A DNA stretch of 64,000 bases from Mesotaenium endlicherianum (Eukaryota), in NCBI GenBank assembly GCA_009602735.1, contig WELA01003597.1, positions 600,682 to 664,681 of the forward strand, written 5' to 3'. Of the stretch, positions 19,218 to 61,581 are shown piece by piece. A program made the translations under genes and the position numbers. The first letter of the stretch is position 1. Every line of letters starts with the position of its first letter. A model generated the notes under the pieces. It saw nothing but the letters and a program-made list of their open reading frames with translations, ran no database searches and was not told the origin of the DNA.

Positions 19218-19246
19218 CACCCTGAAAATGGGCAAGGGGCGAAACT
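19218..19246 (+). repeat. Left TIR of the EnSpm-like element
   Basis: 25/29 inverted match to 61553-61581; all mismatches are transitions. Confidence 0.8.
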
Positions 19247-20029
19247 CAAAAAAGGGGTTTGTTTTTGGCGAGGGCTAGCGCAATTTTAACCCAAACGGAG
19301 GTTGGAAATGACTGACCACATGTCCTGCACCCCGCTGGAAAATCAGCCCAGGTTATAATTGCTTGTTTTTCCATTCATCCATAGGATTGTTTTCTTGCCC
19401 ACTTAGTGACGTCTGTATACCCTTGTTTTAGGTTGTGCATTCCACCCCCGCTCCTGGGATGGAATACAGCGTTTTCTCCGCTTACAATTTTTCTTCTTCA
19501 TCATGCATATTTAGTACACCATATCAGTGGAGTTATTCCTTGCCTCTTGTTGTGTTCGTTTCTCAACTCCTCCCAGGTGTGCACAATCCTTCTCTTTTTG
19601 GACACATTTCCCTTCGAAATTCTGGGATGAATTTATCTTCAAATGCTTACCAACAATTTAAGCCTCCAACACCTTCGAAATGCCAGTAACAAACTGCATA
19701 ATTAACATTAAATGCGATCCATATTCACGCAATGAAAAATATTGTACATTTTCATTTGTATCCACAATTGTACAAGTACTACTGAACTATCAAGCATTAC
19801 TTTTACCACTAAATTAAGCCCAACAGGCTACCTACTTCACCTAATAAGCAGGACACGTGCTGCAGTGTCTAACCGTGGGACATAGGCTAGTATCTCTCAT
19901 CGCTGTCACACATATATATTACGCCAGAACCTAGTCAAGGTGTCCTCTTACCTCACATCATGCATTCTAGAACTACAAGTAAGGCACATGGCCCCTGTTC
20001 ACAAGCACCCAGAGGAACTACTATCGCTT

Positions 20030-23000
20030 AGTCACTTCTTGTGTCGCTTCTGTACTGGAAGTGAGGGCAAGGCCCTCCCCAACGATGCCGAGAAACTTCC
20101 TCTGCTTCCTCGACCCCCCCTCTGCGCCTTTCTCTTGCCTGCACACAACCACTTCATTATCAGTGCTGCGCACTTGCACTGTGGTGGTATTCAGTATTCA
20201 CCACATACTGCTCTTCATGGGCAAGGCAAGGAAACTCATTATTCCGATTCCGACACGCTGGGTGTTATAGGTGTCTTTAGTGGTGTGCGTGCATGTGTCT
20301 GTTACTCCGTGTACGCGCGATGCATAAGGGGGTATGTTTGATGCAACATTGTCATACATACACCCCCCATTCATTGACCAGCAGCAAGGCAACAAAAGCA
20401 TTCTGATTGGTGTGTGACACAACACCAAAACCCTGCTGTGTTTGCCCATGCATGACAATTTTCACATGCACCTTTAAGTTCACAATAAGGCAACTATGAC
20501 AGTACAAACTCTTGAGAGTAAACACGTGCATCCAACAATAGCCTGAACGGTTTGCACATACCTCTATTCATGGAATACTCTGGAGACATTGGCTGGTCAT
20601 CTTTGTCGTCACATCCAGATGAAGCTCCCTCGTTGCTCTCTTCTGATGGCGCTGACTCGCTACTTGAGTCGTTCTCGTCATCATTGTTCTCAACAAGCGT
20701 CTGCTCTGCCGCTGCCACCTTGACTTTTTGCAACCTCAATCGTTTCCAAGCCAAGTTAGCACTAATCTGCTTCCATTAGTGACACTCAAGCAACACGTGC
20801 TACATACTTTCACCCTTGCAACTTCCTCGCACTTACAATTGCATTGCGAGTCACTTGCTCCTTTCATCCACATCACACTGCGTTTTACAATGAACATATA
20901 TGGCATATAGGCAATACTTCCTCACAGGTATGCACGTGCATCACTTATCTAAGCTTCACCAGGTACTCATGTCACACCATCACTTTATGCATGCATACGA
21001 ACTCTCAAATACACATCTCACCTTCTTCTTGCACTTCTCCATCAGATAAGCCTTCACGCTCTCGTGGAAAGTTGTATGCTTTGGCTTGTAGTCTGCCACG
21101 TCGGGCCACTTTGCTTGCCACGGGTTGTGCTTCTTGAGCAATGACTCCACAATCCACTCCGCTGACTCATCTGTGAGGCCACCAGCGGCCTCGTCTTCCC
21201 ACTCAACCAACCCCTTTGCCAGCCCCCGCAACATGTGCTTGCTCAGCAGGCGAGTCATTTCTGACCTTGAGTCCTTCCAAATTTTGTTCAGTCGCTGCAG
21301 CCACACACCCACCATTGAACAATATTAGGAAGCATGTTCTACCAGCCACTCATTGCAAGCAGATTAACTACAAACTTGTGAGGCACATATAAGTGCAATG
21401 TTATCCTGTTGCTCTAGCTGTCCGCATTACAACGTGCATTACAAAGAAGTGGGATGTTCTTACCTTCAATAAGTCAGCCAGAAGTGCCTTCCCAGAGCGT
21501 AGAATTCTTTGTTGCGCTTGATGTAGACCACCATGTTATTTGCCTTCGCTGGGGGCTTTGTGTAACCCCTGAGCACTTTCTATGTTATATGGTCTCGGAG
21601 GCGAAGCAGGACCTTGAGAACCATTTTCTACCTGCTTCACTGCTTGCACCTCATCGATCATCAAAAAGTGAGGTTGAACTTACGCAACGCGTTCCACACC
21701 TCCTTCACGGCTTTAGTCTGCAACATGTCCTCAACATATCACTCCTCCCACAATTAAGTCATACACACCCCATGCGTGTCACAATCACTTATTCATTCAC
21801 CTATTGCAACACTGAACATGCAGTCAGCTGCAATAATTGCCCTGTTTAAAAAATAGCATGTTATTTCTGCCTCATGCACTTTCTTTCATCGTCGACACAG
21901 TGTAGGCTATCTGCAGCAGGCCCCATAGCCGGCCCCATAGCCAGGTGATACAGACACACAACATCCCCATTCACCACCTGCGAATATGGCAGCTTGCAGT
22001 TGCAGTTTGCATAATGAAGCTTCTACTTCACTCCACATTTGTTTATACAAAATACTATATATTCACAGCTGAATTTATTGCAATGACAGCCGATAAGGTT
22101 AATTTTAATTTGCATGCATGCAGGAGACAGTGGAAATTGTAACACACAATTTATTGTCAGTGCCACACCGAAACATGCACATCAAATAATAAATAAATGT
22201 TCTCATGCAGGTAGTACTTCACTCACCCGCTTGTCCTCCTCCTTCTCAACCTTGGGCTTCTTCTGATTGCCTCTGGTTGATTGTTCCACCAGCAAACTGA
22301 CGCTCTGAGCCAGATTTTTCAGCACGGGTAGAACCTCTCCAAGCAAGATAGATGTAGTTATGTTGCTCCTTGCCTCCATGGTCATATTCTGCTCCCCAGT
22401 ATCATCTCTCAATGCAAGTTGCGCTTGTTCGCCTCCAGCCTTACCTGTGACTATTACATCCTGAGAAGCATCGGTGATTTCAGCGTTTGATACTCGCTCC
22501 CCAGTTACTTGTGACAGAATCCCTTGCACATTATCTCTCTCTTCCTCTCGATTGGATAACTTGCCATCATGACCACACGATGCATCCTTTCCATCATCAA
22601 CATCAGTTCTAAGACCCTCTAGGGTATACCTGGTGTTCCTCCCAGGGAATGTTTTTCCACCCTCAGGGGCAGCATAATCTGGGTCACTTCCCGACATTTT
22701 CTCATTGTCATTATTGGGAGTCTCCCTCACACTCCCACTTCCTCCTGCTCCATTGCAAGTATTTGAACTGCAAACTCTGTGTGCCTCTCCACTCCCATCT
22801 AAGTGGTTTTCTAAGTTTTGTGGGTTTCCCTCATCCAACTCGGAAATGTTTTTCTGTTTATTTTTCCCGCCAATTGCAAGCAATATTTGTTTGTTTTTTA
22901 TTGCACCTAATGGTTTCTTTGAGGGTTGAAAGTGCCTATCTCCCAAAGCAACACCTTTAATGAGATTGTTGCAATTGTCTTTACTCTTCCGTGGCATCCT

Positions 23001-23090
23001 GCCATTACCACCTTCATTGCCGGTGTTAATGGTGCTAGCCATGAATGGCAAATTCAAAGAAGCCATGGCTACAATTAAGCTCGCGACCAC
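20030..23090 (-). pseudogene. Multi-exon gene of unknown function inside the EnSpm element (disordered N-terminal exon, W-rich helical exon, acidic and basic tail); partly degenerate
   Basis: Co-oriented open segments 23090-22203 (295 codons), ~21720-21480 (with stops), 21315-20980, 20754-20555 and ~20160-20030, separated by intron-like sequence. Confidence 0.45.
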
Positions 23091-23093
23091 TGC

Positions 23094-23596
23094 TGTAGTG
23101 ATTTGAGTTATTATATATTAGTTTGCATATATTTTAATGTTTTCAAATATATTTGGAGTAGTATTGTGTGGAGTCAAGTTTGAATAGGTACTCTAGTAAC
23201 TTGGTTCATGTCCTTTGAACCTTCCAAGGCATTTTCGAAGTTAGAGGAAAGACCTAGAAGAACTCCATGTGGCAAAAGTCAAATGTGCCATTTTTAGGTC
23301 AAAAGGACATGTGTACATTATTCTAGAAAGAGGTGGCAAGTTTTGGGATGTGTTGGGTGCCAACACATCAACATACACTTTCCTAGAAATTACTTATGTA
23401 GCAAGTATATAAACAAGAGCTAGAACATAGAAAGACATTCCAGAATCACTCTTGTACTTGCCAAAATCCAGAAATATATTAACTTTCAAGAAGCCATCTC
23501 TCTTTCAAGAAGCTACCACTTGTGTTCAAAGATCCTTGTCTTGAATAGATAAAGTATTCTGTTTTACTAAGTACTTTATCTATCTGTTTCACTACA
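23094..23596 (+). repeat. 5' LTR (503 bp)
   Basis: 8-bp terminal inverted repeat; about 6 mismatches to 29271-29773 by eye. Confidence 0.97.
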
Positions 23597-23597
23597 G

Positions 23598-23609
23598 TGG
23601 TATCGGAGC
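23598..23609 (+). promoter_or_regulatory. Primer-binding site TGGTATCGGAGC (initiator-Met tRNA type, variant)
   Basis: 1 nt after the LTR end; differs from the common plant TGGTATCAGAGC at one base. Confidence 0.9.
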
Positions 23610-23633
23610 TAGGCACTTTGGTAGCACAAGAAG

Positions 23634-24914
23634 ATGGCCGATCCTCAAGACCAACAGCAAGCTTTCGAAGGAAGCCCTTCCTCTCCAAGACACCCTCCTC
23701 CAGCGCCGATGGGAGAGCCCACTCAAGAAAATCTGCAACAACAAGAAGCACCACAAGGAGGAGCACACCCTCCTCCAGCGTCGATGGGAGAGCCTACTCA
23801 AGGAAATCTCCAACAACAAGAAGCACCACAAGGAGGAGCACCGTCAAATCCCGTGGCAGCCGCTATAGCAAAGTTGACCCCACCACAAGGAGTTCCCGCA
23901 AATGAGTGGGCAGCCTTCCTAATGACCGTCCACAACCAAGTGGGCTTGGCCACCTATGAAGCAACCGTGCAAGCGTCAAGAGAAGCTATGGCTGCCATGG
24001 TTGCCCCTATTGCGAGCAATGCTCAAAATCCAGCCCCGGCTCAAGCGCCTCCACAAGAGCCAACGAGAGCAAGGAAACTCATCAAGCCCGGCAAACCCGA
24101 CACTTTCAACCCCGGGAAAGGTGCCAACCTGAATTTATGGCTCTACCAAGTGGAGACGTACCTCGCATTCCTTGAAGTACCCGAGGAGGACTACGTTCCC
24201 TTTGCCGTTACCTTACTTAGAGGAGCAGCAACATCATGGTGGCGTAACTATCAAGCGGCTATATATCAAGCTATGGCGCACCCCATGCTCGGCCAAGAGC
24301 CCCCACCATCATATGCAAGATGGGCAGATTTTCGTGAGGCCCTCAAGAAGCAATTCATGCCCATCAATGCGGAGAAGATTGCCCGAGGAAAGCTCCACCA
24401 TCTCAAGCAAACGACGTCCGTTCAAGAGTATACATCCAGATTTCACGCCCTCACTCTTGAGATCCCCAACATGTCTCTCGAGGAGAAGATTGACCGCTAC
24501 ATCTTTGGCCTCAAACCCAAGGTGGCAAAGGAAGTGGAGTTACGCGACTTGACGGACTTCTCAAAGATCATTGAAGTGGCCCAAAAGGTGGATACCTTGG
24601 ATTTCAAGCACTCCGTGCCTTCATCTTCACGGGTACCGACGACGCGGGTGTACGCAGCCCCTTCCACATCCGAATCTGGACCCACACCCATGGAAATCGG
24701 AGTTATTAAAAGGGACCCCGCGGCTGCCCGGAAGAGTGGAAGACCCTCCAATGACACTTATGATGCAAGAAACCAGCAAGGAGTGAAAGCAAGACTCTCC
24801 CCGGCTGAAAAAGAAGCTCTCATGACGGCTGGACTATGCTTCTATTGCAAGGAAAAGGGCCATCGTGCACTTTCATGCCCCAAAAAGTTGTCAAAAAACG
24901 GACAGCGCCGGTAG
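23634..24914 (+). CDS. gag: Gag (retrotransposon capsid plus CCHC zinc knuckle), 426 aa
   Basis: [34 protein letters not shown] and [15 protein letters not shown]-terminal 25-aa tandem duplication. Confidence 0.96.
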
Positions 24915-27900
24915 GCCAGGAGCCTACCACCCCAAGACCCACTTCACGAGAAGGCAACACGCCAAGTGAGGTGGAGACCCCCGTTGAAGACGACGTTCCA
25001 GCCCCAATGAGTTTGAGAGGTTACCTTGGAGGAGAGAAGGTCCACATCTTGGTGGATAGCGGAGCTCAAGGCAACTTCATTGCTGCAGATTTTGCCACCA
25101 AGCACGGTATTACTATGCGAACTCTTGACCACGACGAGGAGATTATGATGCCCGATGGATTCTCCTATACTACCCCTTCCAAGAAGACGTACCCCTTGGC
25201 ACTCTCTATCAAGTCCTTCAAGGATAGAGTAGTGTTCTCCCCCATGCAATTGGGCAAGTACGACGTCATCCTAGGGACGCCTTGGTTGACCAAGCACAAC
25301 CCCCAAGTTGATTGGAGGACCGGTACTATCAAGATCAAGAATGACATCACTTCAAGAATCTGTATTTTGCGCGCAATCCAGAATATCCAGACCCAAGACA
25401 TCCAGAAGCCGGCACACGAGATACTATTGTCCGCCCTCCAACTCAAGAGACTTGTGAGGAAGGGACACGAGCTTCTTTTGGCCTTGATCACGCCAAAAGA
25501 CATCAAGAAAGACATCGAGAGTCAAGAAGGCAGCCCCGTTCCCAAGGAGATACAAGAAGTCTTAGAGGACTACAAAGAAGTGTTCTCCCCGGAATTGCCC
25601 AAGGGCCTACCCCCCAAAAGATTCGTAGACCACAAGATAGAGTTGGAGCCCGGAAGCAAGCCCATCTCTCGGCCTACGTTCAAAATGTCATACACGGAGC
25701 TAGACGAAGTCAAGAAGCAAATCAAGGAGCTACTGGAGCATGGCTTCATTCGACCTAGCAAGTCGCCATTTGGAGCCCCGGTGCTATTTGTCAAGAAGAA
25801 AGATGGTACCTTGAGGATGTGTGTGGACTATCGCGCCCTCAACAAGATCACCATCAAGAATCGATACCCGCTGCCGCGCATGGATGAGCTCATGGACCGG
25901 CTGGTTGGAGCCAAGTACTTCACGAAGATTGACTTACGGAGCGGCTACCACCAGATTCGCATCGCAGAACCGGACATAGAGAAGACGGCATTCAGGACAA
26001 GATATGGACATTTTGAGTTCATGGTCCTGCCATTTGGACTCACCAACGCGCCAGCAACTTTCATGACTATGATGAACACCATATTTCAGCCCATGTTGGA
26101 CAGATTTGTGGTGGTATTCATCGATGACATCCTTATCTACAGCAAGACCCTTGAAGAGCATGCGAGACACTTGAAAGAAGTCCTTGAAGTATTGAAGCAA
26201 AACAAGCTATTTGCGAAGGAGTCAAAGTGCGAGTTTGCCAAACAAGAAGTGGAGTTCCTAGGTCTCCACGTGACTGCTGATGGCATCAAGATGGACCCCA
26301 AGAAGACCACGGTGGTGGAGGAATGGCCAACCCCCACGACCAAGAAAGAACTCCAGTCATTCTTGGGATTTGCCAATTGGTACAGAAAATTCATCCAAGG
26401 CTTCTCGCACATAGCAGCCCCCCTGACAGATCTACTCAAGAAGGACAGGCTATATACATGGACCGAGAAAGAGGAAGAGGCATTTCAAGAGTTAAAGCGA
26501 AGATTGACCACATCCCCGGTGCTCACACTCCCAAGTCCAAACCCAGATTGGCCCTTCCACGTCATCACCGATGCATCTTCCTATGCAATAGGAGCAATCC
26601 TGCTTCAAGACCAAGGCAAGGGACTGCAGCCCATCGCCTACGAGTCAAGGAAGCTAAATCCAGCCGAGCAAAATTATACAACCACGGAGCGAGAGGCATT
26701 GGCGATTGTACATGCCTTGAAGGTTTGGCGCTGCTACGTTGAAGGACGCAAAGTACTGGTCACCACGGACCACGAGGCGTTAAAGCACCTCCAAACGCAG
26801 CCGTATCTCTCAAGGAGACAAGCAAGATGGAGCGGATACTTGCAACAATACAACATCACGATTCAGTACCAGCCCGGCAAGACAAACCCGGCTGACCCCC
26901 TCTCAAGACTGCAATTAAATGCAGTGATGGTATCCCTGAAGACAGATCTGGAAGCTCGATTTTCAGCCGCCTATGAAAGAGACCCTTACTACAAGAACGG
27001 AGAAGCAGCCTTGGACCCATGCAAGAAGCAAGAAGGCAATTATTGGGTGAGGCAAGATACGGGCCAGAGATGTGTTCCTAATGACATAGACCTCCGGCTC
27101 TTGCTTCTACGAGAAGCACACGACAACCCTCTTGGAGGACACTTTGGAATCCTAAGGACCACGGGCGTTCTAGCTAGGACTTATTGTTGGCCAGGCATGT
27201 CTAAGCAAGTCAAGGAGTACTGCAGGAGCTGTGACACATGCCAAAGAATCAAGCCATCATCGCAAAAGGCGGGAGGACTCCTCCAACCACTACCAATCCC
27301 CGAAAGACAATGGACGGACATCTCAATGGACCTTATCGTGGACTTGCCCGTGACACCTCGAGGCCATAATGCAATACTCACGGTGGTGGACAGACTTACC
27401 AAGATGGCTCATTTTATTCCCACGACGACTAAGGCTACAGCACCACAACTTGCAAGACTCATCTTTGACAACATCTTCCGACTCCATGGACTACCATCAA
27501 GAATTGTGTCAGATAGAGATCCAAGATTCACAAGCCATTTCTGGAAAAATCTCTTCAAGAACTTGGGTACATCGCTGGATATGTCTACTGCCTACCACCC
27601 ACAATCAGATGGGCAAACCGAGCGTATGAATCGTACCCTAAAGACCTCTCTAAAGGCCTACGTGTCTACCCTCGAGCAAGACTGGGACATGTACTTGACC
27701 CCCCTCGAGTTTGCCTACAACAACACTACGCAGGCCTCTACCCAAGAGTCCCCATTCTTCCTCAACTATGGCTTCCATCCGACCACGCCACTGAGCTTCA
27801 CGGCTGGCCATGATGAAGTACCTGCAGCCACAGATTTTATGGAGACATTAGAAGCAGCCCTTACAGCAGCGAAGAAAGCTCTACAACACGCGCAAGATGC

Positions 27901-28501
27901 TCAAGCAAGAGTGGCGAACAGATCCAGAAGAGAAATTACGTACAGAGTGGGTGACAACGTGTTACTATCATCCAAGAACATTCCCCTGAACAACAGGCCT
28001 GCCGGCAGCAAGTTTTCTCCCAAGTATTTGGGACCCTTCAAGATTATCCAGCAAGTCAACCCCGTTGCTTTCAAGCTAGAACTTCCCCAGACTATGCACA
28101 TCGACCCCGTATTCCACGCTTCCCTCTTCAAGCCATATGTGCAACCCGACAACAAGTTCCCAGGACGTGTGACAACCCCACCAGCCCCAACAATAGTGGA
28201 TGATCATTTGGAGTACGAAGTGGAAGACATAGTGGCTATGAGAAATTTCAGGAGACAGCAGCAATACTTGATCAAGTGGAAAGGATATCCAGATTCGGAG
28301 AATAGTTGGGTGGCGGCGCACTACCTTGACAAAGTTCAGAGAAAGTTGAAGCGCTTCCATGCCGCCAACCCCCATCTTGGACCAGCCCCAAGTCTCTCTA
28401 CTAGAAGCCCGAAGACTTCAGGGAGGCAGCCTGCCACCATCAAGAAGCAGCAGAAGACCCCTTGGAGGCAGCCTGCAAGAACAAGAAAGAGGAAAAATTG
28501 A
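24836..28501 (+). CDS. pol: Pol: protease-RT-RNase H-integrase-chromodomain; intact open frame, probably made as Gag-Pol by frameshift
   Basis: LVDSGA, LPFGL...FIDD, TDAS, HHCC zinc finger, DDE core, YLGPF and the chromodomain YEVEDI...YLIKWKGY...NSW. Confidence 0.97.
24893..24928 (+). promoter_or_regulatory. Candidate -1 ribosomal frameshift signal: A AAA AAC plus downstream hairpin
   Basis: Heptamer 24893-24899 is in the gag frame and pol is in the -1 frame; stem GGTAGGC-cagga-GCCTACC at 24910-24928. Confidence 0.75.
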
Positions 28502-29270
28502 CATTAGACACTCTTCTCTTCTCGCAGTTTCTGGACAGAAAACTAAAACTGCTACTGGTAATAGGTCTCTGCATAATAAATTCTGAAAATTTACCTGGCT
28601 GTAGTCCATGAGTAGCCGGTCATTTAGAGTCCAAGTTTGCTCAATTTGGAGCACTGGTGAGAGAGATATGATGCTCTAAGTAGAAGGGGGTCAGGCTGCT
28701 GGCATTGTTAGGACAGAATATGCCTTCTGACATTGTGCCCTCCCCTGAACTTGGAATGCTCTGAAACTCAAGACTCTGGTAGAACATCTTACAGCGCCCA
28801 GTTTGAGACTTAGTTTGCAGAATTTGGAGAAGTATAGAAGGACTTATGATTTTCAGAAGTTTCTGCACAGATTTGGAGGAGTGCCTACTCTCTCAGCTCT
28901 CAACGACAGTCCAGAAGTTAGAATGCTCTCAAATTTGGTGACCCAGTAGAGTTCTTTGACGCGGTCCGTCTGGCACCCAAACTTTTAGATTTGAAGCAGT
29001 TCTATGGCCGCTATGAATTTTTGAATTTGTGGCAGATTCTGGGCCAACTTGTACAATTTCCTTTATCATTAAGGAGTAGGCTAGCCAATAAGGTCACACC
29101 ACCTACGACCTTGCCTAGTCTACCTTACATGTGTCGCACCTGACTTGGCGCCTTTGACTAGTCCTCTTCACATGTGTGGCATCTGACTTGAAACTGTTGA
29201 CTAGTTTGCTCCACATGTGTAAGACCTGGCTTGACGCGCCGAGACGTCGCTTTTTCTATCGGGGGGGTGA

Positions 29271-29773
29271 TGTAGTGATTTGAGTTATTATATATTAGTT
29301 TGCATATATTTTAATGTTTTCAAATATATTTGGAGTAGTATTGTGTGGAGTCAAGTGTGAATAGGTACTCTAGTAACTTGGTTCATGTCCTTTGAACCTT
29401 CCAAGGCATTTTCGAAGTTAGAGGAAAGACCTAGAAGAACTCCATGTGGCAAAAGTCAAATGTGCCATTTTTAGGTCAAAAGGACATGTGTACATTATTC
29501 TAGAAAGAGGTGGCAAATTTTGGGATGTGTTGGGTGCCAACACATCAACATACACTGTCCTAGAAATTACTTATGTAACAAGTATATATACAAGAGCTAG
29601 AACATAGAAAGACATTCGAGAATCACTCTTGTACTTGCCAAAATCCAGAAATATATTAACTTTCAAGAAGCCATCTCTCTTTCAAGAAGCTACCACTTGT
29701 GTTCAAAGATCCTTGTCTTGAATAGATAAAGTATTCTGTTTTACTAAGTACTTTATCTATCTGTTTCACTACA
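29271..29773 (+). repeat. Second LTR (503 bp)
   Basis: Preceded by the PPT and followed by a second PBS instead of the TSD. Confidence 0.95.
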
Positions 29774-30345
29774 GTGGTATCGGAGCTAGGCACTTTGGTA
29801 GCACAAGAAGATGGCCGATCCTCAAGACCAACAGCAAGCTTTCGAAGGAAGCCCTTCCTCTCCAAGACACCCTCCTCCAGCGCCGATGGGAGAGCCCACT
29901 CAAGAAAATCTGCAACAACAAGAAGCACCACAAGGAGGAGCACACCCTCCTCCAGCGTCGATGGGAGAGCCTACTCAAGGAAATCTCCAACAACAAGAAG
30001 CACCACAAGGAGGAGCACCGTCAAATCCCGTGGCAGCCGCTATAGCAAAGTTGACCCCACCACAAGGAGTTCCCGCAAATGAGTGGGCAGCCTTCCTAAT
30101 GACCGTCCACAACCAAGTGGGCTTGGCCACCTATGAAGCAACCGTGCAAGCGTCAAGAGAAGCTATGGCTGCCATGGTTGCCCCTATTGCGAGCAATGCT
30201 CAAAATCCAGCCCCGGCTCAAGCGCCTCCACAAGAGCCAACGAGAGCAAGGAAACTCATCAAGCCCGGCAAACCCGACACTTTCAACCCCGGGAAAGGTG
30301 CCAACCTGAATTTCACTAAGTACTTTATCAATCTGTTTCACTACA
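29774..30345 (+). other. Duplicated PBS and 5' gag (about 170 codons) fused through TTT microhomology to the last ~35 nt of an LTR
   Basis: 29774-30313 matches 23597-24136; it is followed by ...CACTAAGTACTTTATCAATCTGTTTCACTACA and the TSD. Confidence 0.9.
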
Positions 30346-30876
30346 ACTGCTGTCTGTTATTTCCTCAGAAAGTTGCATTATGCAAGAGGTAGCAGCCAAA
30401 TACGACGTCTACCTGCCCAATAATTCTTGTCCTGTGGATTGATGTGTGCCCACTGGGTTTTTGGCCCACTCTAATTTGTCACACGTCATAAAATCGAAAA
30501 CAATTCACGTGGCTTTTTTTGATAACAATGATAGAAGTTGTACTTCCCAGTACTTCCATCTTGGATACCTGAACTCTTTAAATATAGGCTTGATTTCATT
30601 GCTTGTGAGGTAGGGAAACACATTTTCAACCACCTAAAATCGTCGACTTACAGCACCACACGTATTCACGAAAATGAGGTAAGCGCCACCTACACTTCCA
30701 ACTAATTCCAAGTAAAATGTCTCCATTGGTACCTCAGCTAGTTAATTATAGACTCTTTTGCTGCTCCCTAAATTAGTTACAATGTTAACACACTTCCTTT
30801 ACCAACTTATATCGCGAATGTATTTGTAGGCACGTCATGGCTAAAGACAATGGCCTCTTGTTGACTTGACAAGGTA

Positions 30877-31470
30877 TTGGAGGATGTTAGACGTGTGTTT
30901 TTGCAACTCACTGTCCTGCAAAATGAAGGAAAGTCATCGATAGGGCTGAAAGATGATGCCTCGGCCAATGCTATGCAAAAAACGCAAATGCAACTTTACG
31001 AGGATAGCTTGGAGAAGACTTTCCTGCAAGAAAAGATAGCGACATTAGAGGGAATCCTTGTAGCACGTTGCAAGCACGAGAGTAACTATTGTAAAGAGAA
31101 ACAACAAGAGTTGGCCAAGGAAAACATTGCCCTCAAGGTGGAGAGAAACTCACTCGTTGAATAAAATTTCACTCTTTAAGGGGCATACAAATTGCCGTAC
31201 TGATTGCAATCGGCCTTATTTCAACAGGCAAAATGTAGTTCTCAGGGAACTCAGTCATCAATTGTTATTGAAGGACTCACAGGGTGTTGAAGACAGGGAA
31301 AAGTCAACTGTGCTTCATTTGAACTCCTTGAGCTGTGCCCAAGAACCACCACAGGCACCACAAGCACCACTAGCAGGCACGCTAGAGGCAGTACATGCTA
31401 TCAAGCGCGCCCCTAAATCACCCAAAACGTATGCTGTGGACATGCCAGTTGCTTCCGCCAATGTAAGCAA
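30877..31470 (+). CDS. Coiled-coil-like exons of unknown function inside the EnSpm element; possibly the 5' part of the HIRAN gene
   Basis: LYEDSLEKTFLQEKIATLEG...KEKQQELAKENIALK|GT, followed by an AG-started segment to ~31460. Confidence 0.4.
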
Positions 31471-31722: not shown

Positions 31723-32443
31723 TGTAATAAATAAGTATATTAGTTGATATGATATTCATTTAAATATAATAGTTAATTAAGTTCAGCCTGCTCAACTCTA
31801 GTTAATAATCAGTCTGCCGGACTTTATATTTAATATCAGTTTAATGACTCGGCCCAAAGCAGCAGGCTGAAGTCAACTTAAGTCAGCTTGCTGACACATT
31901 CTTTGACAGCCAGCTGACTTCCGTACTTGGTAGCAGTGAACTGCCTCGATATGCATCTAAGTGTGGTATGCTAGATGAATCGCCAAATGACATCCCTATG
32001 ATGGATGGCGATTCGGGATGATGGGAGATGGCGGTGGATTTGGTTAACCGAGGTCCTACCAACGTGGTTAACTCCCGGGTAGGCGGTGCCATCGCACTGA
32101 CCGTTGAACAGTAAACTCATTCCATGTACATATGCTAGGCATTACTCTCGAGTTCGGCATTTGGAAACAAGGCCAACTCTCTTGTACAGCTTACTAAGAG
32201 CGATCTGAATCCAAGGCGAGAAGCCATTGATACGCACTGTCTTTTAACCTTGCTTATGTATGAGTTTACTGATTTGCATTATTGATGCTAGTTTACTCGC
32301 ATTTGACTTACGAGTTTTATTCACTGCTAGTGTGTTGTCCTTTGCCGTTAAACCAAGTAACGGAAAATACCATAAAGATTACTTGCTGATATAAATATCT
32401 TCATTAATTGTTAATTGCCTATTTGGTAAGTCGATTCATTTCA
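31723..32443 (+). repeat. 5' LTR (721 bp)
   Basis: Roughly 25-30 mismatches to the 3' LTR by eye. Confidence 0.95.
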
Positions 32444-32477
32444 GTGGTATCGGAGCAGTTATCACAGTCTTCTTTGT

Positions 32478-33169
32478 ATGGTAAGGACAAGGTCTCAAAC
32501 TAGCAACTCCCGAGGCATGGAGAACCAGGATAAGGAGAATGTCGAAAACCAGGCGGAAAGCCATGTAGCGGGAAACCTTACCTATTCTGAAGCAGTAGCA
32601 GATACTGCAGCTAGGGAGGCTGCAGATGAGGCAACTGCTATTGCCGTTGTCGCAGCACAGCAAGCTCAGGAGGAGAGAGCCAGGCTAGAAGCTGAACAAG
32701 TAGTAAAGGCCGCTGAAGATACAGAAAGGAGGGAAAGACAGCCAGCTGACGAGCGCACTGTCGAGGAACTCATGGCATCAAGGACCAATGTTCTGAACCC
32801 ACCTCCTGCTGTACAACTCAATGTACCCCTAGGTCAAATACGTGACCGACTGAATGCGGCAGGAATTGCTGCTGCAGGAGCAAGAGGGATTGTTGAGGAC
32901 ACTACTCAGCGAGTAGAGGTCAATACTGCTGCTGCATTTGCTAATCTACCACCCCAGACTGTAGACTTGGGAGCATTGTTCGTTCGGATGCAGTCGCAAA
33001 TGGCGACCATGTATCAGTCCCAACAAGAGGACAAAAGAATCATAATGTCCCTACAGCGGGACAGAGACCAACTGGGGTCTCAAACCACTAGTGGTGGTGG
33101 CCGAGGGCCTAGTAAGCCCAAGCCGAAACCTCCCCAGGAATATGATCCTGAGGGAAACAGAAAATATTA
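32478..33169 (+). CDS. gag: Gag N-terminal part, running into an assembly gap
   Basis: Starts MVRTRS just after the PBS; KPKPPQEYD capsid-start motif before the N run. Confidence 0.75.
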
Positions 33170-33793
33170 NNNNNNNNNNNNNNNNNNNNNNNNNNNNNNN
33201 NNNNNNNNNNNNNNNNNNNNNNNNNNNNNNNNNNNNNNNNNNNNNNNNNNNNNNNNNNNNNNNNNNNNNNNNNNNNNNNNNNNNNNNNNNNNNNNNNNNN
33301 NNNNNNNNNNNNNNNNNNNNNNNNNNNNNNNNNNNNNNNNNNNNNNNNNNNNNNNNNNNNNNNNNNNNNNNNNNNNNNNNNNNNNNNNNNNNNNNNNNNN
33401 NNNNNNNNNNNNNNNNNNNNNNNNNNNNNNNNNNNNNNNNNNNNNNNNNNNNNNNNNNNNNNNNNNNNNNNNNNNNNNNNNNNNNNNNNNNNNNNNNNNN
33501 NNNNNNNNNNNNNNNNNNNNNNNNNNNNNNNNNNNNNNNNNNNNNNNNNNNNNNNNNNNNNNNNNNNNNNNNNNNNNNNNNNNNNNNNNNNNNNNNNNNN
33601 NNNNNNNNNNNNNNNNNNNNNNNNNNNNNNNNNNNNNNNNNNNNNNNNNNNNNNNNNNNNNNNNNNNNNNNNNNNNNNNNNNNNNNNNNNNNNNNNNNNN
33701 NNNNNNNNNNNNNNNNNNNNNNNNNNNNNNNNNNNNNNNNNNNNNNNNNNNNNNNNNNNNNNNNNNNNNNNNNNNNNNNNNNNNNNNNNNNNN
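33170..33793. other. Assembly gap (N run)
   Basis: 624 N. Confidence 1.
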
Positions 33794-36700
33794 AAGACAG
33801 TCCCCCCTATCCTACTGCATTGCATGATTGCAGGTAGGAAGGTGAGGGCATTTGTTGACGGAGGGGCGTCGCATACTTTTATCCACAAGGACTTACTTAA
33901 GCGGCTAAGGCTGCCTACTGTCACCCAAGGGAATAGAAAAAATATTCCTTGGAGATGCCTCAAGTATCCCGAGAGGAGTTATAACCAAGCCTATTGAGGT
34001 CCAGTTAGGTTCTGGCATTGCAGTTCTAACTAAAACGCTTACATTTGAGGTACTCAACACTGGCTTTTATGATCTCGTGCTAGGCAGGTCCTGGCTTAAT
34101 AGACATCAAGCTGAAGTGTGTTGGAGCAGAGGTACAGTTAAAGTGAGAGGAGTTCGTCAAAAGCTGGAACCGGAAGGAAGACAGAATGTTCTGTCTGCTG
34201 CTAAGAGAGGTACCTTCTCAACCTGAAGAAGTGGTTGAGGAAAAGGTGAGCCCTCCGGAGCACCCTACTACTGCAAAAATTGTTGCTCAGTACACGGATG
34301 TATTTAATATGCCTCCAGGACTACCCCCTAAGAGGGAAGTAGATCATGATTGATTTATTACCTGGTAGTCAACCACCCTGGCAACGCACGTATGGCTTGT
34401 CTTATGTGGAGAGCGAAGAGTTGAAAACACAGATTGCAGAGCTTGAGGAAAATGGTTATATTTCTCCCAGTAAATCACCGTACGGCGCACCCATCCTATT
34501 TGTTAAGAAAAAGGATGGCAGTATGCGGATGTGTGTGGATTACAGAGTCCTGAATAGAATTACAGTAAAGAACAAGTATGCTTTACCGAAAATTGAGGAC
34601 TTGCTTGATACCCTGTCTGGTGCTAAGGTGTTCACTAAGATAGATCTCAAGAGTGGTTATCATCAAATCAGAATTGCTGAGGGGGATGAACACAAGACTG
34701 CTTTCCGCACACGTTATGGACACTATGAGTTCAACGTGATGCCCTTTGGACTGACTAATGCTCTCGCTACCTTCATGGGTGCTATGAGTGACATTTTCAG
34801 ACCATATTTGGATAAGTTTGTGCAAGTTTTCCTGGATGATAGTTTAATTTTCTCTAAAGATGAAGCTCAGCACACTGAACACTCAAAAATAGTCCTGGAC
34901 AATTTGCGGAAAAATCACTTATATGCTAAAATGAGCAAGTGTGATTTCTTTAAGGAAAGTATTGAATTCTTAGGCCACGTTGTCAGTAAAGAGGGCATCA
35001 GTGTGGATCCTAAGAAAGTCCAGACCATAAGGGACTTGCCAGTACCACAGTCTGTCTCTGAAGTTAGATCCTTCCTCGGGTTGGCTAACTACTTTAGGAA
35101 ATTTATTGAGAATTATTCCACAAAGGCCAGTAAACTGACTGACCTTACTAAGAAAGACATCGGGTACGTGTGGGGGGAAGAGCAGCGGGCTGCCTTCCAG
35201 ACTCTTAAAGATGCCCTTTGTTCTGCCCCAGTGCTAGCCGTGTATGACCCCAGCAAACCGGTGCAGGTGGTTACTGATGCCTCTGATTTTGCCATGGGTG
35301 CTATTTTGTTGCAGCCTGCTGACAAAACCACAAAGGATGGTAAGGTACGGCAGGAGTGGCATCCTGTGTTGCATGAGTATGAAATTTTATCCAGCGGAGA
35401 TTAATTACTCAGTGCATGATAAAGAGCTGCTAGCTATCATTCATGTACTCAAACAGTGGAGAGCATACTTACATGGTAAAGCTTTTAAGGTGATTACAGA
35501 TCATCTAGCTCTGACCCACTTTCAGAAGAAGTCCAAGCTGTCGAGGAGGGAGAACCGCTGGAGCCAGATGCTGGAGCAGTTCCAAGTCCAGATCGACTAC
35601 AAACCAGGGAAGTTGAATCTTGCTGATGCACTCTCTAGAAGACCTGACTTGCAAGAAAGGATCTTTAGTCAGCATGCTGTAGATAAAGTCTTGTGTGCAC
35701 TCACTTCACTAAAGGTGAAAAAGTCCTTCCTTGACCAACTTAGGAAAGCCTACCTTTCTAAACCCTAAACCCTAAACCCTAAACATTTGAGCCCAGCCCC
35801 ACTACTGGAGTGTGTCGTGCTACTGCACTCGGGTATAAGCTCAAGGGAGGGGTCTGGGTGAATGAAACCACTTCAGGCAGGTTGAAGCTGGTCATTCCTA
35901 ACGACTTGGAAATAAGGTCTCTCTTACTGAGTCAAGCTCATGACAGTCTCCTGGGTGGACATTTGGGGCAGGCCAAAACTGTTGGCAAACTGGCAAAACA
36001 TTATCATTGGGAGGGGTTACCCCGGGAGGTCTTGAAATATGTCAAGTCCTGTGACCAGTGTTAGAGAAATAAGTCTCGGCACACACCACCCGGAGGTCTT
36101 TTGCAACCGCTACNTTTGCAGCCGCTGCCCATCCCAGCTGGACGCTGGGAAACTATCTCCATGGACTGGGTGGTCTCACTACCAAGAACTGCCAATGGGC
36201 ATGATTCAGTACTGGTAGTCGTGGATAAACTGACAAAAATGGTCAATTTTATCCCCACAACTGTCAAAGTGACTGCAATCGAAACAGCGAGACAGTTCTA
36301 CAACCATGTAGTATGCCAACATGGGCTCCCTTCTAATATCATCTCAGACAGAGACTCAAAATTCACCTCTAAGTTCTGGAGAGCTTTAATGGGGTTAATG
36401 GGAGTCAAACAGCTGCTCAGCACAGCAAACCACCCTCAGACTGATGGGCAGACTGAAAGAACTAACCGAGTTCTGCAGGAGGTGCTGAGAGCATATATTA
36501 ACCAAAAACGAGATAATTGGGATGACCTGTTGCCTCAAATTCAGTTTGCGGTCAACAGTGCGGTGCACGCGTCAACGGGCAAGACTCCTTTTGAACTCAG
36601 CCTGGGTAGAGTCCCTAAGTCTCGTTTAGATGTACTGGGGGAGTCTTTAACTTGCCCTGAAGGGATTGACAACCGGGTCTCCCTCCAGTTAACTCAGGAG

Positions 36701-37257
36701 TTTGCTGCACCCTGTCAGAAGTCCAACAAAACCTGCACAACGCCCAAGAAAACCAACAAAAATACGCTAATCAACACCGTCGGGAACTGACATTTTCCAA
36801 GGGCGATTTAGTCAAACTGCATTCTCAGCACCTGTACCTCCCTGGTGTGGTCAAGAAAAAGCTTGGCCCTGTCTGGGTCGGTCCATATTTGGTGGTACGT
36901 CGTGTCGGTCAGAATGCTTACAAACTGAACATGTCAGCTGACTACAAGGGTCACCGGTCTTTAATGTCTCCTTCCTGGAACTATACATCAAAGGTGATAC
37001 ACTGTTCACAGGTCGGTTACTTGTCCAACCGGGATCGGTCCCCGCTGTCCGGGACGGCGACCCTGAGGAATATTGAGGTCGATGAGATTTTAGACGCTCG
37101 CTCGGTCCGTCGATCGTCTAAATATGTCATGAAGTACCTCATCCGATGGAAGGATCACGATGCCTCTGGGGACACTTGGGAATTTAAAGACCAGCTGACC
37201 AATGCCAAAGGGGCGTTGAAACGGTTCCACCTTCGGGCGGCTGGGGCACCGCCCTAA
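33794..37257 (+). pseudogene. pol: pol (protease, RT, RNase H, integrase, chromodomain) with frameshifts and stops
   Basis: FVDGGASH, MPFGL...FLDD, TDAS, HDSLLGGH...CDQC, ISDRDSKF, WVGPY and IEVDEIL...YLIRWK...DTWE. Confidence 0.93.
35758..35784 (+). repeat. Interstitial plant-type telomeric repeat, about 4 units of CCCTAAA
   Basis: CTAAACCCTAAACCCTAAACCCTAAAC inside pol. Confidence 0.92.
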
Positions 37258-43055: not shown

Positions 43056-43759
43056 TAGCGAGCGCTGTTGTCGTCAAAGACCCCCGCTGGAGAGGGGGCG
43101 TAGGCTGCACCAATGCACATGTTCTCGCAAGCTTTTGTCTTGAGCGAGCAATCCCCTGTACGCTGATGATGCAGAGACTGTCTATGCAAGTCAACTGCCA
43201 GATGGCAGCGGGCCAAATGGCGGCAAAGCCCGATCCTCTCTAGCAAAGTAAAAATGATGATTGAACGCTTGGTGTGCGGCCTGCTGGGAGTTTGGGGACA
43301 AGAGAGAGGGGGGGAGAGTGNGACTCGAAGTTGTCGCCCAGATGACAATGTCGGAGCTCTCCTTGGCCACCTCTGTTCCCGAAATGCCCATGGACAGCCC
43401 AATGTCCACCTGAGCGTGCATACGAAGAGAGACACACACACATGCACGCACGCACACATATGCACACGCGCACACACAAAGGTGTTTGTTAAAGCAGGGG
43501 AGGCAAACAGGTTACTCTCAGAGAGATCCAACAGGAGATGGGCTGGTAGGACAACAAAGAAAAGAAGCTCTGCGGCATGCTCGTAATCAAAACGTGAAAC
43601 AATCCATCAGTGATATGAAGCATGCGCATGCACAGCGGCGCATACACACACTGCTGTGAGAGGAGTGGCGAGCAACGGCATGGAGGGGGAGAGGAACAAC
43701 AATTGCAAGGGCGCAAGGAAACGCAGAGAGAGAAGCAAAGAGAGGACGGACCGAGCAGC

Positions 43760-46700
43760 CAGGGTTACGCCGTACGCCGTATTGGCCAACCCTCGTATGC
43801 TCAATTAAGCGTACTGAGACGGTTCGCTCGTACTAAGCGAACTGAAGCAAAAAAGTTTTAGGAAAAACACGTGCGCGCCGCCCACGGGCCCGTCCGACAT
43901 CCGTATTGTCCACCATTTTTGGCTTCGGTGTCTTACCTTTAAAAATTTTGTCGATCAAAATCGATCAACAAAAAGCTTGACTTGTTCTTGCAACTTTTTG
44001 CAGGAACGGCAGCAAACTTCTCGGGGGCCGGTTGATACCTTCAATGCACCTCTTTCATTAGCATCAAGCGTCAAGTAAAGAAGAGTAGGAGGTAACGTTT
44101 TTTAGGGTAAGCTATAGAAACGTTTATAGTTCCAATCGAAGCGACTTTTGAAATCTGCCTGACCTTAGGAGACTAGAGAAGTTGTTGCGATCCATTTTTT
44201 AGACAAAAAAAGCCCCACGGATTCTGAAAAGTGGTTGCCTTTGTCTCTCAACTCTCAGAATTCTCAGCGGTGTTTTTTTTCCGTGCATACCTCTGGAGTC
44301 GCATCAGTTCTTCCAGTAGTGCATGGCAACCATGGGCTTAGCAGAGGAGGGCGCCTCCTTCTTCTTGTTGTTGGGTTTTGGGAGACAGCACCCCTCATTG
44401 CACTTGCACCAGCACCAGCAACTGCGACAGCTATGCCAGCAACTGCTCTGCCGGTAGCTGTTGATGCTGCAGCAGTCACGCCTGCCGGTGCTTTTCTTGA
44501 GCTTGCTGCTGACTGTACAACACCCCCAGCTGTGACAAGAGAGCCCACTTCCCCTGTTGCCGGAAAATAGAGGGCCTCCCGGGTGAAAGAGGCAGCTAGA
44601 GTGGCTATGAGGGAGGTAGCTCTGCCAGCTGCAGCCTGTCTCCTGCCGATGGTTTGAGCTCTGACACTTGTCCCACCTGTGCCATGATTAGCAGAACCCC
44701 CTCCTTTATGTATCTGGAGCACATTGAATATATTTCCCTGACATGTGGGAGAAAGCCTAAGTTTGGAACTTGAGGGAAGGGAAAAAGAGGGTGGGATGAA
44801 GGGGAAGTGGGGTAGCTATAGCACGCCTACATCCCTTTCCTTTTGAATTATATCTGCTTTAAGAAGCATATGCAGGAGCAGCTGATCCTCAATCGTATGC
44901 GTAAACTCATGCCACAGGGGACTGGTTGTTTCCACAATCTCATCATTGACAAACAATATCTGTTCTGTTCCACAAGGTCTAGGAAGTGGGGGGTTTGGAT
45001 CAGGGACAGGGTGTGAGCATTTTGGGGCTCACCCGGGTGCACCTCATGCTCACATGCAGCCACAGCCAGGTATTCCAGCTGGGCCAATCAGTGATATGCT
45101 CGATGAAGCGGGCTCAGGGTTCATCAGAAGTGGACTGGGAGCTAATGGAGAGAGGCTTTTTGGCAGCAGCAGAGACTATGCTCAGTCAAATGCAAGTGTA
45201 TTTCTACTGCAAGTAACTCATGTCCCTGAGAGATAACGTCAAGTTTTGGTACATTATTTCACTCAGTTTAGTTATTCTCCTTAGTTTTGGACATGCAAAC
45301 TTATGTGTGACCAGATGACCACATACTTCTCCTCACAAGACATTCCTTACTACTTCGAAGTTGTTGGCTCTTACATGCAAGACAAGCTAAAAGTGATTCT
45401 CTGTCCCTTTCTACACAAGGTTTGCTCCATACGACCCCGTTGGTGATGATCTACTCATGTCCTCAGGACACTTGTCATGATGCTGTCTGCAGCTTGATTT
45501 TCTGGTGCTTTAGGTGCCAGGCCCCCTGACGCTGCCTTGAAGCTGGCAACCCCCTGCATCTTGCATCTGCATTGGTGCAACTGGTGCACCCGGTCAGGGA
45601 AGTCCAACTTCAGTCACTACCAAGTTGCGTGTTTCCTGCCTTCAACTGAGTTGAGCTGGACAAATTTCAAGTAGACTTTTGTTGCAATTTTAGAAAGCCA
45701 AGTATGTGGAGATTGCAAGACTTCCTGGGATGGTGGTGAAGGGTCACTGGACGCGAATAGCAGAGCAAAGTAGCAAGAGGTCTCACGTACAAGCCCCCAA
45801 AGCATGACATCAACGCGCCAGGTCTGTACAACCCTATCATGCCATTTACCACCTACGTTGTTGTGGGGGGGCTCGCCTGGACAAGAAGCGAGCTTGCACC
45901 TCCCACCCCTCATTCGCCATTACTTACCCACACCATACTTTGTTGCTTTGCTGGCGACTCCAGCCATGTAATCTGCTTGTTTGCTTGCATGTTTCACTGA
46001 GGAACATGTATACACATACTCACATGCCTGTCTATCTGTGGGCGCAAATGTGCATGTAATAGTAGTTAGCTAAGGTCCATTGCCGAACCCCAAGGGCCCT
46101 GTCCCTTTCCTCTGGTAGCTTCTTTTTTATTTATTTTGCTACGTAGGCTAACCCCTCCCATCACGTCTGCTGTGCTTTCTATTGACACCCGTACTTTATG
46201 CAAGGGGGGGCAACAGTAGTGTGCATCAGGCCCTAATCCGGGCATGGTCTTGAGTGCAAAACTATGTGTGGGGACTCATACCTCTAACAAAGTAGAGGTA
46301 GCAATACTAGCTTCTAGCAATGTGACACACACGCACAACACGGAGGAACTTAGGGCTCCTCAATTTGAGTGCAAGGTGAAACCGGCCCCCCCATCTACCC
46401 CAAACTTTCCCAAGCTTCCCTCAGCTTAACGTGCATACCTCTGCAAGCCAAAGAGGTGGCAGGCTGGCGGGCCGGCATGCAGATAGGCAGGATGCTTAGT
46501 CCCCGATTCCCCTCTTCCTCCCCTTGCAAGTCCGTTACCCCGGCCCCTTCCTGTGCCCGCTGGCCCTCATGTGTGCCTACACCTTCCGGGCGACGCGCTG
46601 GGCGTGCTTCAGGTTTACGCCACGGTGGTGAACTCGCGCTTCATCACGGGGCTCATTGGCTGGGCCCTGGAGGTGGTGCTCCTACACTTCATCCTGAACT

Positions 46701-48222
46701 CGCTGGGCAGCGGCGACACGCCCCTCATAGACCTCATCGCGTACGCCGGCTACGTCATTGTGGGCGTCACAACCGCCCTGCTCAGCTGGCTCGTCTGGTG
46801 CCACTCCTACTATGTTATTGTGGCCTGGACGAGGTACGCGCCTCCCTCCCTCCAGACAACTGTCCCGCTCCTTAATGTCTTGTTTTGTCCCAAGAGAGGG
46901 GTTGGGGGGAAGGCGACAGGGAATGTGGGAGAGAAATGATGGGCTGGAGTTCTTTTGAGTGCTGAATGACTTAAGCAATGCAATTTGGCAAGCATGGTGG
47001 TGCGAGAAAGGGTTTGCACAGGGCCACATCATTAGCACCTAGCATTGGGTGAGAACGCTTTGCAAGGGTACTCAATTCTTGCTGTGTGTGTGCAGGATGC
47101 TTATTAAAGCCTGCTTCATCTCCCCCCTTCTTTTTTAATTTGCTTGTCTGCAGCTATTGCATGGCGGCGTTTCTTGTGAAGACCATGAAGAGGGTGCAAT
47201 TTGCAGGGGCAAGGTAATATGATCGTGAAGCAAGCCGGCATCGATACCTGTTCCTCCTCATGAGCGTAGCACAGTTTTCTTGTCTTGTGGTTAGGCCGCT
47301 TAGGGAAGTGATGTAAGTAGTCACTTTGTGACGTTTGAGTGGAGCTGATTTCACACGCAGGCAGTGAAGTTTGTACATAAATATACGAGAATGAAATTGC
47401 AGTTTCTACGTCATTGGCCTCTTTTTGTTTTGAAGTTCTGAATATAGAAAAGAGTGAATGCCTTAGGATACTAAAACTTGCGAGTGTCTTGTGAGGAGTA
47501 GTCTTTTGAAGGTAACCAAGAAATGCTGTGAAATATGCCATCATATTATTCATAAAACTAATACCTTAATTCAAAGCTAGTAAACGTGTAGGACAAAAAC
47601 GAAAAAAATTGTCACAAGCAATCACAAGTTCTTAAAAGCCATCCACCAAAACTAGGGGTAGGAATAATAAGTACATGTATTGTAACCTGTGAGATTGTTG
47701 CGCACTACCTTAATAGATGCTTTGAGCCCAAGCAAATGAGGCATTAAAAAGTGGCAAATATGACAAGTCTTAAAATTTACTAATATGAGCATCACTTTTT
47801 TGTAAATTAGAATTGCCTATGGATGCATCATCTCCTGCAGGCGTAGTGGTCAGTCGCCGTATTTAAAGTTTGCGGACTACTCACTGTGGTTATAGTTTGC
47901 TACGTAGTGAGTTCATATTCTGCTACTAGCAACCGCTAGCTCAAGTTTTCTGCAATTTTTATCAAAAAAAATTCCTCGGCATATTTTTCTCAATTTTGTT
48001 TTGCTTGGTGGAAAAAGTTTTGTTCCTACCCGGCTTACTTCAAAAAGTACGATTGTTCTTTCACGCGTGCGACCGTCCCGTTCACGTTGGAACTTAACGT
48101 CGGGACGTTGACAATAGCACGTACTAAGCGTACTAAGCGTACAAAGCCATTTTTTTACACAACGAATTTAGCGAACTAGCGTACTTCGCGTACTAAGCGT
48201 ACTAGCGTACGATGTAACCTTG
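43760..48222 (+). mobile_element. Non-autonomous hAT (Pack-type) element carrying host DNA; 8-bp TSD CGAGCAGC
   Basis: TIRs CAGGGTTACGCCGTACGC and, as reverse complement, CAAGGTTACATCGTACGC; CGTACTAAGCG-type subterminal repeats; CGAGCAGC at 43752-43759 and 48223-48230. Confidence 0.9.
44976..47311 (+). pseudogene. YIF1: YIF1 (Yip1-interacting factor) pseudogene; 5 exons (~44976-45191, 45315-45419, 45742-~45888, 46613-46833, 47154-~47311)
   Basis: GSGFIRSGLGANGERLFGSS, YYFEV...KLKVILCPFLHK, GHWTRI...YKPPKHDINAPGLY, LGSGDTPLIDLIAYAGY and FLVKTMKRV; frameshifts in exons 3 and 4 and a premature TAA in exon 5. Confidence 0.92.
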
Positions 48223-48224
48223 CG

Positions 48225-48255
<31 letters not shown>

Positions 48256-60941: not shown

Positions 60942-61552
60942 TGTTATGAATGAAATGAAAGGTGCGTAAATGTAGCTACCTTTGTAACGCAAAAATATAT
61001 ATGAGCGAGGAACAGATGTACACCTCGATATAGTTTAGCTGCTGGGTAGGCGAAAGACGCCTGCCAAATTTAGCACTTGTAACTTGGATTGTGGAGATTT
61101 TGGAGCCAGGGAGGGGTAGCATGCAACTTATCGTGCTTTTGCTTGCGCATGGAGTGCGTTATGTCCACTTGAAAAAGCCCTGTAAATAATTTGAGAGGTA
61201 CACACAGCGATGAACCTATGAACGCCAGAATTGCGTGGACCTGAGTAAGCTAGATACACTCAACGATGCGCTAGCGGTCCTGCGAGTGACCGGCGACATG
61301 GGCGACATATTTTTGGCAACCGTGAGGCTCGTTCACAAGCATCGCAGGTCATTTGATTCAATAAAGGGAAATGAAGGCCGGATTTCCATCCTTGGAGGTG
61401 GAGGGCAAAGTAACTGCCCGGTTTCGGCGCTAATATGGGCAAAATTTTACAATTGGGTAGGATGTAGTGGGATTTCCGGCGGTCCGCTTGACCAAAATGT
61501 GTCATTTTGCCCGGCACGACCATTCGAGAGCTGGAAATTACGCACGCTGACC

Positions 61553-61581
61553 AATTTTGCCCCTTGCCCATTCTCAAGGTG
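61553..61581 (-). repeat. Right TIR of the EnSpm-like element
   Basis: Inverted match to 19218-19246, followed by TT. Confidence 0.8.

Follow-up and report, generated by a model that had tools for sequence, protein, structure and literature searches.

A broken multi-gene CMCT-clade transposon that likely carries a HIRAN gene of its own family

Anatomy and termini of the element

The window (the whole stretch of DNA that was analysed, 64 kb) holds, at positions 19218-61581, what is fairly probably a member of a repeated family of DDE transposons in the CMCT clade (EnSpm/CACTA, Plavaka, Transib), present here as a broken copy. The copy is likely a single insertion of 13 kb or more, and the HIRAN gene inside it likely belongs to the transposon family rather than to this copy. 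The element has matched ends, a transposase of the CMCT class, a transposase half and a HIRAN gene that both occur in several copies, and a series of later insertions. Its 42.4-kb span describes the present assembly and not the native length. Subtraction of the inserts leaves a residual core of 13,439 bp, close to the 14 kb or so expected by the first-pass annotation, and this is a minimum size because the 3' end of the transposase gene is missing.

19216..19217, no strand: TT, left half of a candidate 2-bp target duplication (read directly)
19218..19244, plus strand: left terminal inverted repeat, 27 bp, starting CACCC (read directly)
61555..61581, minus strand: right terminal inverted repeat, starting CACCT (read directly)
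61582..61583, no strand: TT, candidate 2-bp target duplication, right half (read directly)

The arms of the terminal repeats are complementary at 24 of 27 positions, and the termini read CAC..GTG, which fits the 5'-CA..TG-3' of CMCT elements. As had been annotated, they start with CAC, lie 42.4 kb apart and have TT on both outer sides. No other 27-nt inverted pair with three or fewer mismatches occurs in the window, and a search with a 9-nt seed found none in five of five order-2 Markov resamples. A TT/TT match is expected by chance in about 6.5% of cases from base composition, and it is read at a single site (the CMCT range is 2-5 bp). The 3-base flanks differ (CTT on the left, TTC on the right), which makes 2 bp the length of the candidate duplication. 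When the flanks were joined, neither a reading frame nor a paralogue emerged that would corroborate an empty site. Past the right terminal repeat, contig depth returns to single copy.

A CMCT-clade transposase with distant relatives

56144..60941, minus strand: CMCT-clade transposase, at least five exon-like segments (from reading frames, motifs and relatives)

The transposase gene starts near 60,941 and runs from the right end towards the interior, as far as a splice donor at 56,143; the motifs and relatives bear out the EnSpm-like assignment and the orientation that had been proposed for it. The catalytic D-D-E residues are 149, 235 and 521 of a read-through translation in which an X is placed at the frame break. 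The CxxC (CPCSCC), DxxH and HxxxH (HALLH) columns align with those of relatives, and the C(2)C and H(3-4)H motifs sit after the second D and before the E, where the available text of Kojima 2025 (PMC12730594) places them as CMCT marks. The catalytic motifs align with all four relatives compared, the second D being shifted by one or two columns in three animal-type proteins. This copy of the gene is dead, with a frame break near 58433 (where other copies have two more bases), a stop near 56643 and a lost 3' end. The long pyrimidine-rich introns noted at first pass are present, for example at 59066-59654 (71% pyrimidine). A segment at 42,562-42,790 was considered as the missing last exon and rejected on a splice phase mismatch, judged by eye, and on 1- and 10-base indels in another copy.

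Searched exhaustively with HMMER, 1.84 billion representatives yielded seven matches at E ≤ 0.001 and none at 1e-10. Six of the seven are true relatives, five of them animal-type, including one that clusters with Ixodes proteins. The top representative, P0005, is a repetitive low-complexity artefact and was removed before counting. The closest relative found is P0010, the Mesostigma viride protein Mv15033, with 26% identity over 328 aa (pairwise E 1e-12, library E 5.8e-4), and it is the only HMMER match that spans most of the transposase domain. The animal-type relatives are 18-19% identical to the transposase over 455-545 columns, compared to 28-38% identity among three animal-type proteins.

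Pfam scans of the gene, done piecewise, gave no family match, including to Transposase_21, DUF4218 and TnpA, and PF18759 (Plavaka) matched neither half of the transposase, with P0010 itself at E 0.14. Weak Transposase_21 matches are found in the relatives P0007, P0009 and P0013. In the Atlas the transposase matches Plavaka- and Transposase_21-bearing clusters at 0.93-0.96, and the top cluster has Plavaka on 14% of its members. Other searches gave nothing further: a word-indexed search among longer proteins related none of 7,024 candidates to the transposase half and a two-sequence profile recovered P0010 alone (one of 7,995), both weak negatives; metagenome scans confirmed 0 of 52 and 0 of 595 stretches; and PDB sequence searches returned nothing significant.

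The fold of the transposase is predicted to be RAG1/Transib-like. This rests on a structure model of low confidence (mean pLDDT 46; a single-sequence model at pLDDT 38 was set aside), for which the top five of 48,161 chains are RAG1/ProtoRAG, with Z of 9.1-9.8, 213-223 aligned residues and rmsd of about 5; HzTransib ranks seventh at Z 8.2. Foldseek gave no match at E ≤ 0.001.

The left block and its HIRAN gene

20480..23093, minus strand: multi-exon gene without known family, on the transposase strand (reading frames)
23094..30345, plus strand: LTR1, nested Ty3/Gypsy chromodomain retrotransposon (duplication ACTGC)
30850..31428, plus strand: coiled-coil-like exons with stop codons, the coiled coil judged by eye (reading frames)
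31723..40017, plus strand: LTR2, nested Ty3/Gypsy retrotransposon (duplication TGGTG on both sides)
40801..42207, plus strand: HIRAN gene, exons 40801-41043, 41165-41350, 41618-41842 and 42055-42207
42208..42770, no strand: stretch common to other copies, sharing stops near 42,770 (contig comparison)

Both of the LTR inserts that had been recognized in the element are Ty3 elements, each with its own matching 5-bp duplication. LTR1 consists of an LTR, an internal region and an LTR followed by a partial repeat. LTR2 has LTRs that are 96% alike, and contains a gap of 624 N as well as a single N. Because both duplications match, the left end, the gene at 20480..23093, the coiled-coil exons and the HIRAN gene form one contiguous piece. 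The gene at 20480..23093 has one low-complexity exon of about 287 aa followed by small exons that contain one stop and a break of frame, and its 5' part may lie beyond LTR1. The pieces of it that were tested gave no family or relative in Pfam, in a word-indexed search (0 of 68, a weak negative) or in the Atlas, which held no usable match. The coiled-coil exons are out of phase with the HIRAN gene, which implies a separate gene or a missing exon.

The convergent HIRAN gene stands as annotated, with a Pfam match at E 1.8e-11, or 1.9e-11 when exon 2 is scanned. Our model, made from the sequence and not confirmed by RNA, has four exons joined by GT-AG introns, all in phase 0, and is open over 268 aa; neither a helicase nor a RING domain is detected in the protein. 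Of the genes in the proposed multi-gene core HIRAN is the sole open one, the transposase, the coiled-coil exons and the gene of no known family all having stops or frameshifts. No HIRAN relative turned up in a transposon of another species. The titles and abstract openings of the papers listed, a scope outside which Repbase Reports and most subscription papers fall, contained no report of a HIRAN gene in a DNA transposon.

Copies of the two halves

Contig sets X1 and X4, which come from the same sample and are possibly the source of the assembly, were compared with the window at 80% likeness. Beyond the right end, the X1 depth is 59.4 in six of six bins. All 19 bins over the transposase half lie at 109-643 (median 5.3x flank) and all 27 over the HIRAN stretch at 74-473 (median 3.1x flank), the depth then falling to 50.5 in the last two bins, from 42,788; summed contig depth is no copy count, and we take these values to mean no more than several related copies. 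The HIRAN gene is therefore multi-copy, as is the transposase half. Among the 15 of 20 joints listed, two other contigs of single-copy depth connect the right-end region with the first exon of the transposase (joints 60944-61376 and 60945-61229). Most of the eight joints over the HIRAN stretch bypass diverged sequence at the modelled introns, and exon-rich bins there average 306 compared to 168 in intron-rich bins. In both genes, diverged contigs match the exons and bypass the introns. Exons are thus better kept than introns, as expected if coding sequence has been retained.

The main rival to a helper function for HIRAN is that the element is real and the HIRAN module is passive cargo with no role in transposition, be it a host piece that was captured, a Pack-type piece or a nested second repeat family. 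We regard this as rather unlikely. Captured host fragments (Ca2+-ATPase, YIF1) do lie in the same span, the excess depth of the exons could stem from host paralogues or other repeats, and no read fell on the HIRAN exons in two RNA runs that were read in part (13% of X8 and 24% of X11), the strains of which may differ from the one sequenced here. However, the HIRAN introns and 3' flank are also common to other copies, at about 85-92% likeness, the frame is open across four exons whereas the captured fragments are broken, and the depth range is like that of the transposase. The transposase itself attracted few reads in X8 (86 across the whole stretch), none of them 99% alike. No RNA data set was listed as containing the transposase stretch, which is uninformative about its expression. 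Depth, contig and motif evidence together support the class and anatomy first assigned to the element, and the membership of HIRAN in a repeat family.

The middle block

42771..49134, minus strand: decayed exons, presumably of a P-type Ca2+-ATPase, interrupted by hAT1 (weak Hydrolase match)
43760..48222, plus strand: hAT1, non-autonomous, complete (8-bp duplication CGAGCAGC; YIF1 gene fragment inside)
49135..54808, plus strand: hAT2, cut off at N 54809, with its 5' end and a transposase (DUF659 E 6.6e-36, zf-BED weak)
54810..56139, minus strand: multi-copy hAT3 piece (end at 56139 homologous to hAT left ends)

Between the two halves lies a block that the first-pass annotation had drawn as a nested hAT-containing insertion from about 43000 to 56138. 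The hAT elements are present, but the block starts nearer to 42,771 and is not borne out as a clean nested insertion. The decayed exons at 42771..49134 we take from their motifs to encode a P-type Ca2+-ATPase, and the first 200 bp of this stretch are at single-copy depth. The end of hAT3 at 56139 falls 4-5 bases inside a transposase intron, and no duplication matching this end occurs within 40-56 kb. Taken together, hAT2 and hAT3 have outward-facing 5' ends, both lack 3' ends at N54809, and neither has a matching duplication.

This arrangement bears on the alternative that the two halves are separate insertions, or two loci from different copies or families joined in assembly, with TT/TT a product of chance. 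The block at 42,771-56,138 crosses six single-N joins and has no target duplication bounding either side, the outward-facing hAT 5' ends abut at N54809, and depth is single-copy from 42,788. No contig or joint among those listed bridges HIRAN and the transposase, and the HIRAN-side records (best 16 of 2,318, the remainder mostly LTR-derived) and the transposase-side records (best 16 of 346) gave no match in length or depth. Two separate halves would nevertheless require a left half that lacks a right end and a right half that lacks a left end, 13 kb apart and correctly ordered and oriented, as well as the coincidence of identical dinucleotides next to the only 24/27 inverted pair in the window, and the depth ranges of both halves are similar. 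We therefore consider the alternative quite improbable. The order and orientation of the HIRAN and transposase halves are compatible with one element, and a single insertion of both is likely, short of proof: it is the simplest reading, because complementary halves in the correct order with matched ends and flanks would otherwise be a coincidence.

Discussion

The element has the DDE triad, the C(2)C and H(3-4)H motifs and the CA..TG termini of the CMCT clade. As those groups are defined, its ends place it outside angiosperm CACTA, fungal Plavaka A/B and ESTA/CNEST. Angiosperm CACTA (En/Spm) elements have CACTA/CACTG ends, a 3-bp duplication and the TnpD/TnpA genes. The present element resembles them in clade and in having a second gene on the transposase strand. 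It differs in its CACCC/CACCT ends, in the lack of a 3-bp duplication (CTT/TTC) and in giving no Transposase_21 or TnpA Pfam match when the genes are scanned piecewise. The contrast with angiosperm CACTA drawn in the earlier annotation carries little weight, since an angiosperm host is improbable. The plant-type genes and the chromodomain Ty3 elements point to a green plant, probably a streptophyte alga or a non-seed plant.

Fungal Plavaka A/B, TET+ EnSpm, ESTA and CNEST have the same clade marks, according to the accessible parts of their descriptions. In those parts, fungal Plavaka elements end in TGT..ACA or CATCA..TGATG (Kojima 2025, PMC12730594), unlike the CACCC/CACCT ends found here, and fungal EnSpm has a 3-bp duplication and ESTA/CNEST a TA one (PMC12730594, PMC12810828), whereas the flanks here are TT. 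EnSpm-1_PGr of rust fungi is CAC-ended and 24 kb long with an accessory gene (PMC12730594, available text), and the cargo described is TET/JBP, not HIRAN. Animal-type EnSpm elements resemble the present one in their ends, as the available sections of the sources record CACTC ends with a 2-bp CA duplication for zebrafish EnSpm-N49 (PMC13189230) and a 2-bp duplication for SmTRC1 (PMC1636069), similar to the CAC start and candidate 2-bp duplication of this element. Their transposases are just 18-19% identical to this one over the aligned columns. The autonomous zebrafish EnSpm encodes two proteins, according to the portion of PMC11202377 consulted.

Giant multi-gene relatives are described from several algae, in sources available to us in part. 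The Bostrychia giant Plavaka elements, of the EnSpm superfamily, are 17.4-19.1 kb long with three accessory genes (10.1101/2025.02.11.637652), and Chondrus En/Spm elements are 16-20 kb with 4-5 ORFs (PMC6431247). On those accounts, the red-algal giant Plavaka elements share with the present one a CMCT transposase accompanied by several accessory genes, a similar size class and mostly degenerate copies. Their accessory genes are different, being PAG1-3 (adenine methylase-SET, ParB-2OG oxygenase). The frames scanned here gave no match to PF01555 or PF00856, while PAG1 and PAG3 lack a Pfam domain that could be compared, and HIRAN is mentioned nowhere in the Bostrychia main text (10.1101/2025.02.11.637652). 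Ectocarpus giant EnSpm elements, of up to 15.2 kb, have nested insertions, extra genes mostly without known function and an often pseudogenised transposase (PMC12477816, available part). They differ in their brown-algal host, and HIRAN is absent from that part of their description.

Plavaka-like CMC transposases are present in streptophyte algae and moss, according to the available part of PMC13519894. Mesostigma viride Mv15033 is the nearest sequence found and yet a distant one, and probably comes from a host of the same broad lineage. The literature already contains CAC-ended elements with 2-bp duplications, multi-gene giants of the EnSpm/Plavaka kind and, from streptophyte algae, Plavaka-like elements, and the element does not hold up as the best candidate for an undescribed system that the first reading had made of it. 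Two features look new: the HIRAN gene, and a transposase lineage whose sole full-domain relative found is that of Mesostigma.

From what is known of the family, the transposase would have bound the CAC ends, excised the element and inserted it at TT with a 2-base staggered cut, which would leave TT on both sides. The same-strand gene at 20480..23093 may stand in place of a second, TnpA-like gene; its position and strand, not homology, suggest this role. The HIRAN domain of Rad5/HLTF binds DNA 3' ends (PMC10813616) and HIRAN is said to originate from phage replication systems (PMC3417536), both as stated in the accessible text. By analogy, the small HIRAN protein is predicted to bind free 3' ends arising from excision or integration, and might protect them or steer their repair. 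Later, two Ty3 elements, the Ca2+-ATPase fragment and three hAT elements would have been inserted, and the transposase would have decayed. We tentatively propose, as a possibility that we do not hold to be probable, a distinct streptophyte lineage of giant CMCT elements that recruited a stand-alone HIRAN accessory protein to grip the 3' ends of cut DNA, serving donor-site repair or aiming insertion at stalled forks.

If this is true, no eukaryotic transposon before it would have had a helper of its own for sensing DNA ends, here beside one or two further proteins without known family. In the parts of the literature available to us, the accessory genes of giant EnSpm/Plavaka elements have so far concerned chromatin marks (TET/JBP, methylase-SET, ParB-oxygenase) or had no known function. 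A HIRAN gene carried by a transposon would suggest another strategy, that of managing the broken ends of cut-and-paste transposition; if HIRAN is mere cargo, the element is another decayed multi-gene element. For the CMC transposases noted in streptophyte algae, the copy described here also provides an example that is defined in structure, by its ends, candidate 2-bp duplication and gene set.

A probable host gene and a CoaE exon to the left of the element

The transposon adjoins the right edge of a plus-strand stretch at 10500–19200, in which glutamate-rich exons of about 100 nt each are repeated with 70–85% likeness to one another. This stretch is probably a host gene. To its left lies:

6585–7202, minus strand, dephospho-CoA kinase (CoaE) exon (Pfam E-value 1.5e-21)

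The middle block

Between 42771 and 49134 lie decayed middle exons of a putative plant-type Ca2+-ATPase, with a frame break and changes in the motifs of the catalytic region. The assignment to a P-type Ca2+-ATPase comes from sequence motifs. They are interrupted by hAT1 (43760–48222), a Pack-type hAT transposon flanked by an 8-bp duplication and carrying GC-rich exons and one intron from a host YIF1 gene. The 5′ part of hAT2, a second hAT transposon, contains 34-bp units in tandem, organized as a 210-bp higher-order repeat (51080–52800), within which telomere-like TTTAGGG words were spotted by eye. About 750 bp of the hAT3 piece (54868–55615) are missing from another hAT3 copy, and related copies yield reads in RNA runs X5 and X8, with a joint at 55315–55497.

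The nested Ty3/Gypsy retrotransposons

LTR1 (23094–30345) retains an open pol frame of 1,230 aa and repeats that are 99% alike; its tail is odd, being tandem and terminating in a 35-bp LTR end. A second copy of this family, 93.6% alike to LTR1, occupies positions 1–2416.

The other nested retrotransposon, LTR2, is a member of a very abundant Ty3 family. The contig depth over its end (39960–40017) sums to about 600,000, compared to about 60 for single-copy DNA, and this end has more than 100 distinct flanks among the contigs. In addition, RNA reads in X8 and X11 run from an LTR2-type LTR out into one other locus.
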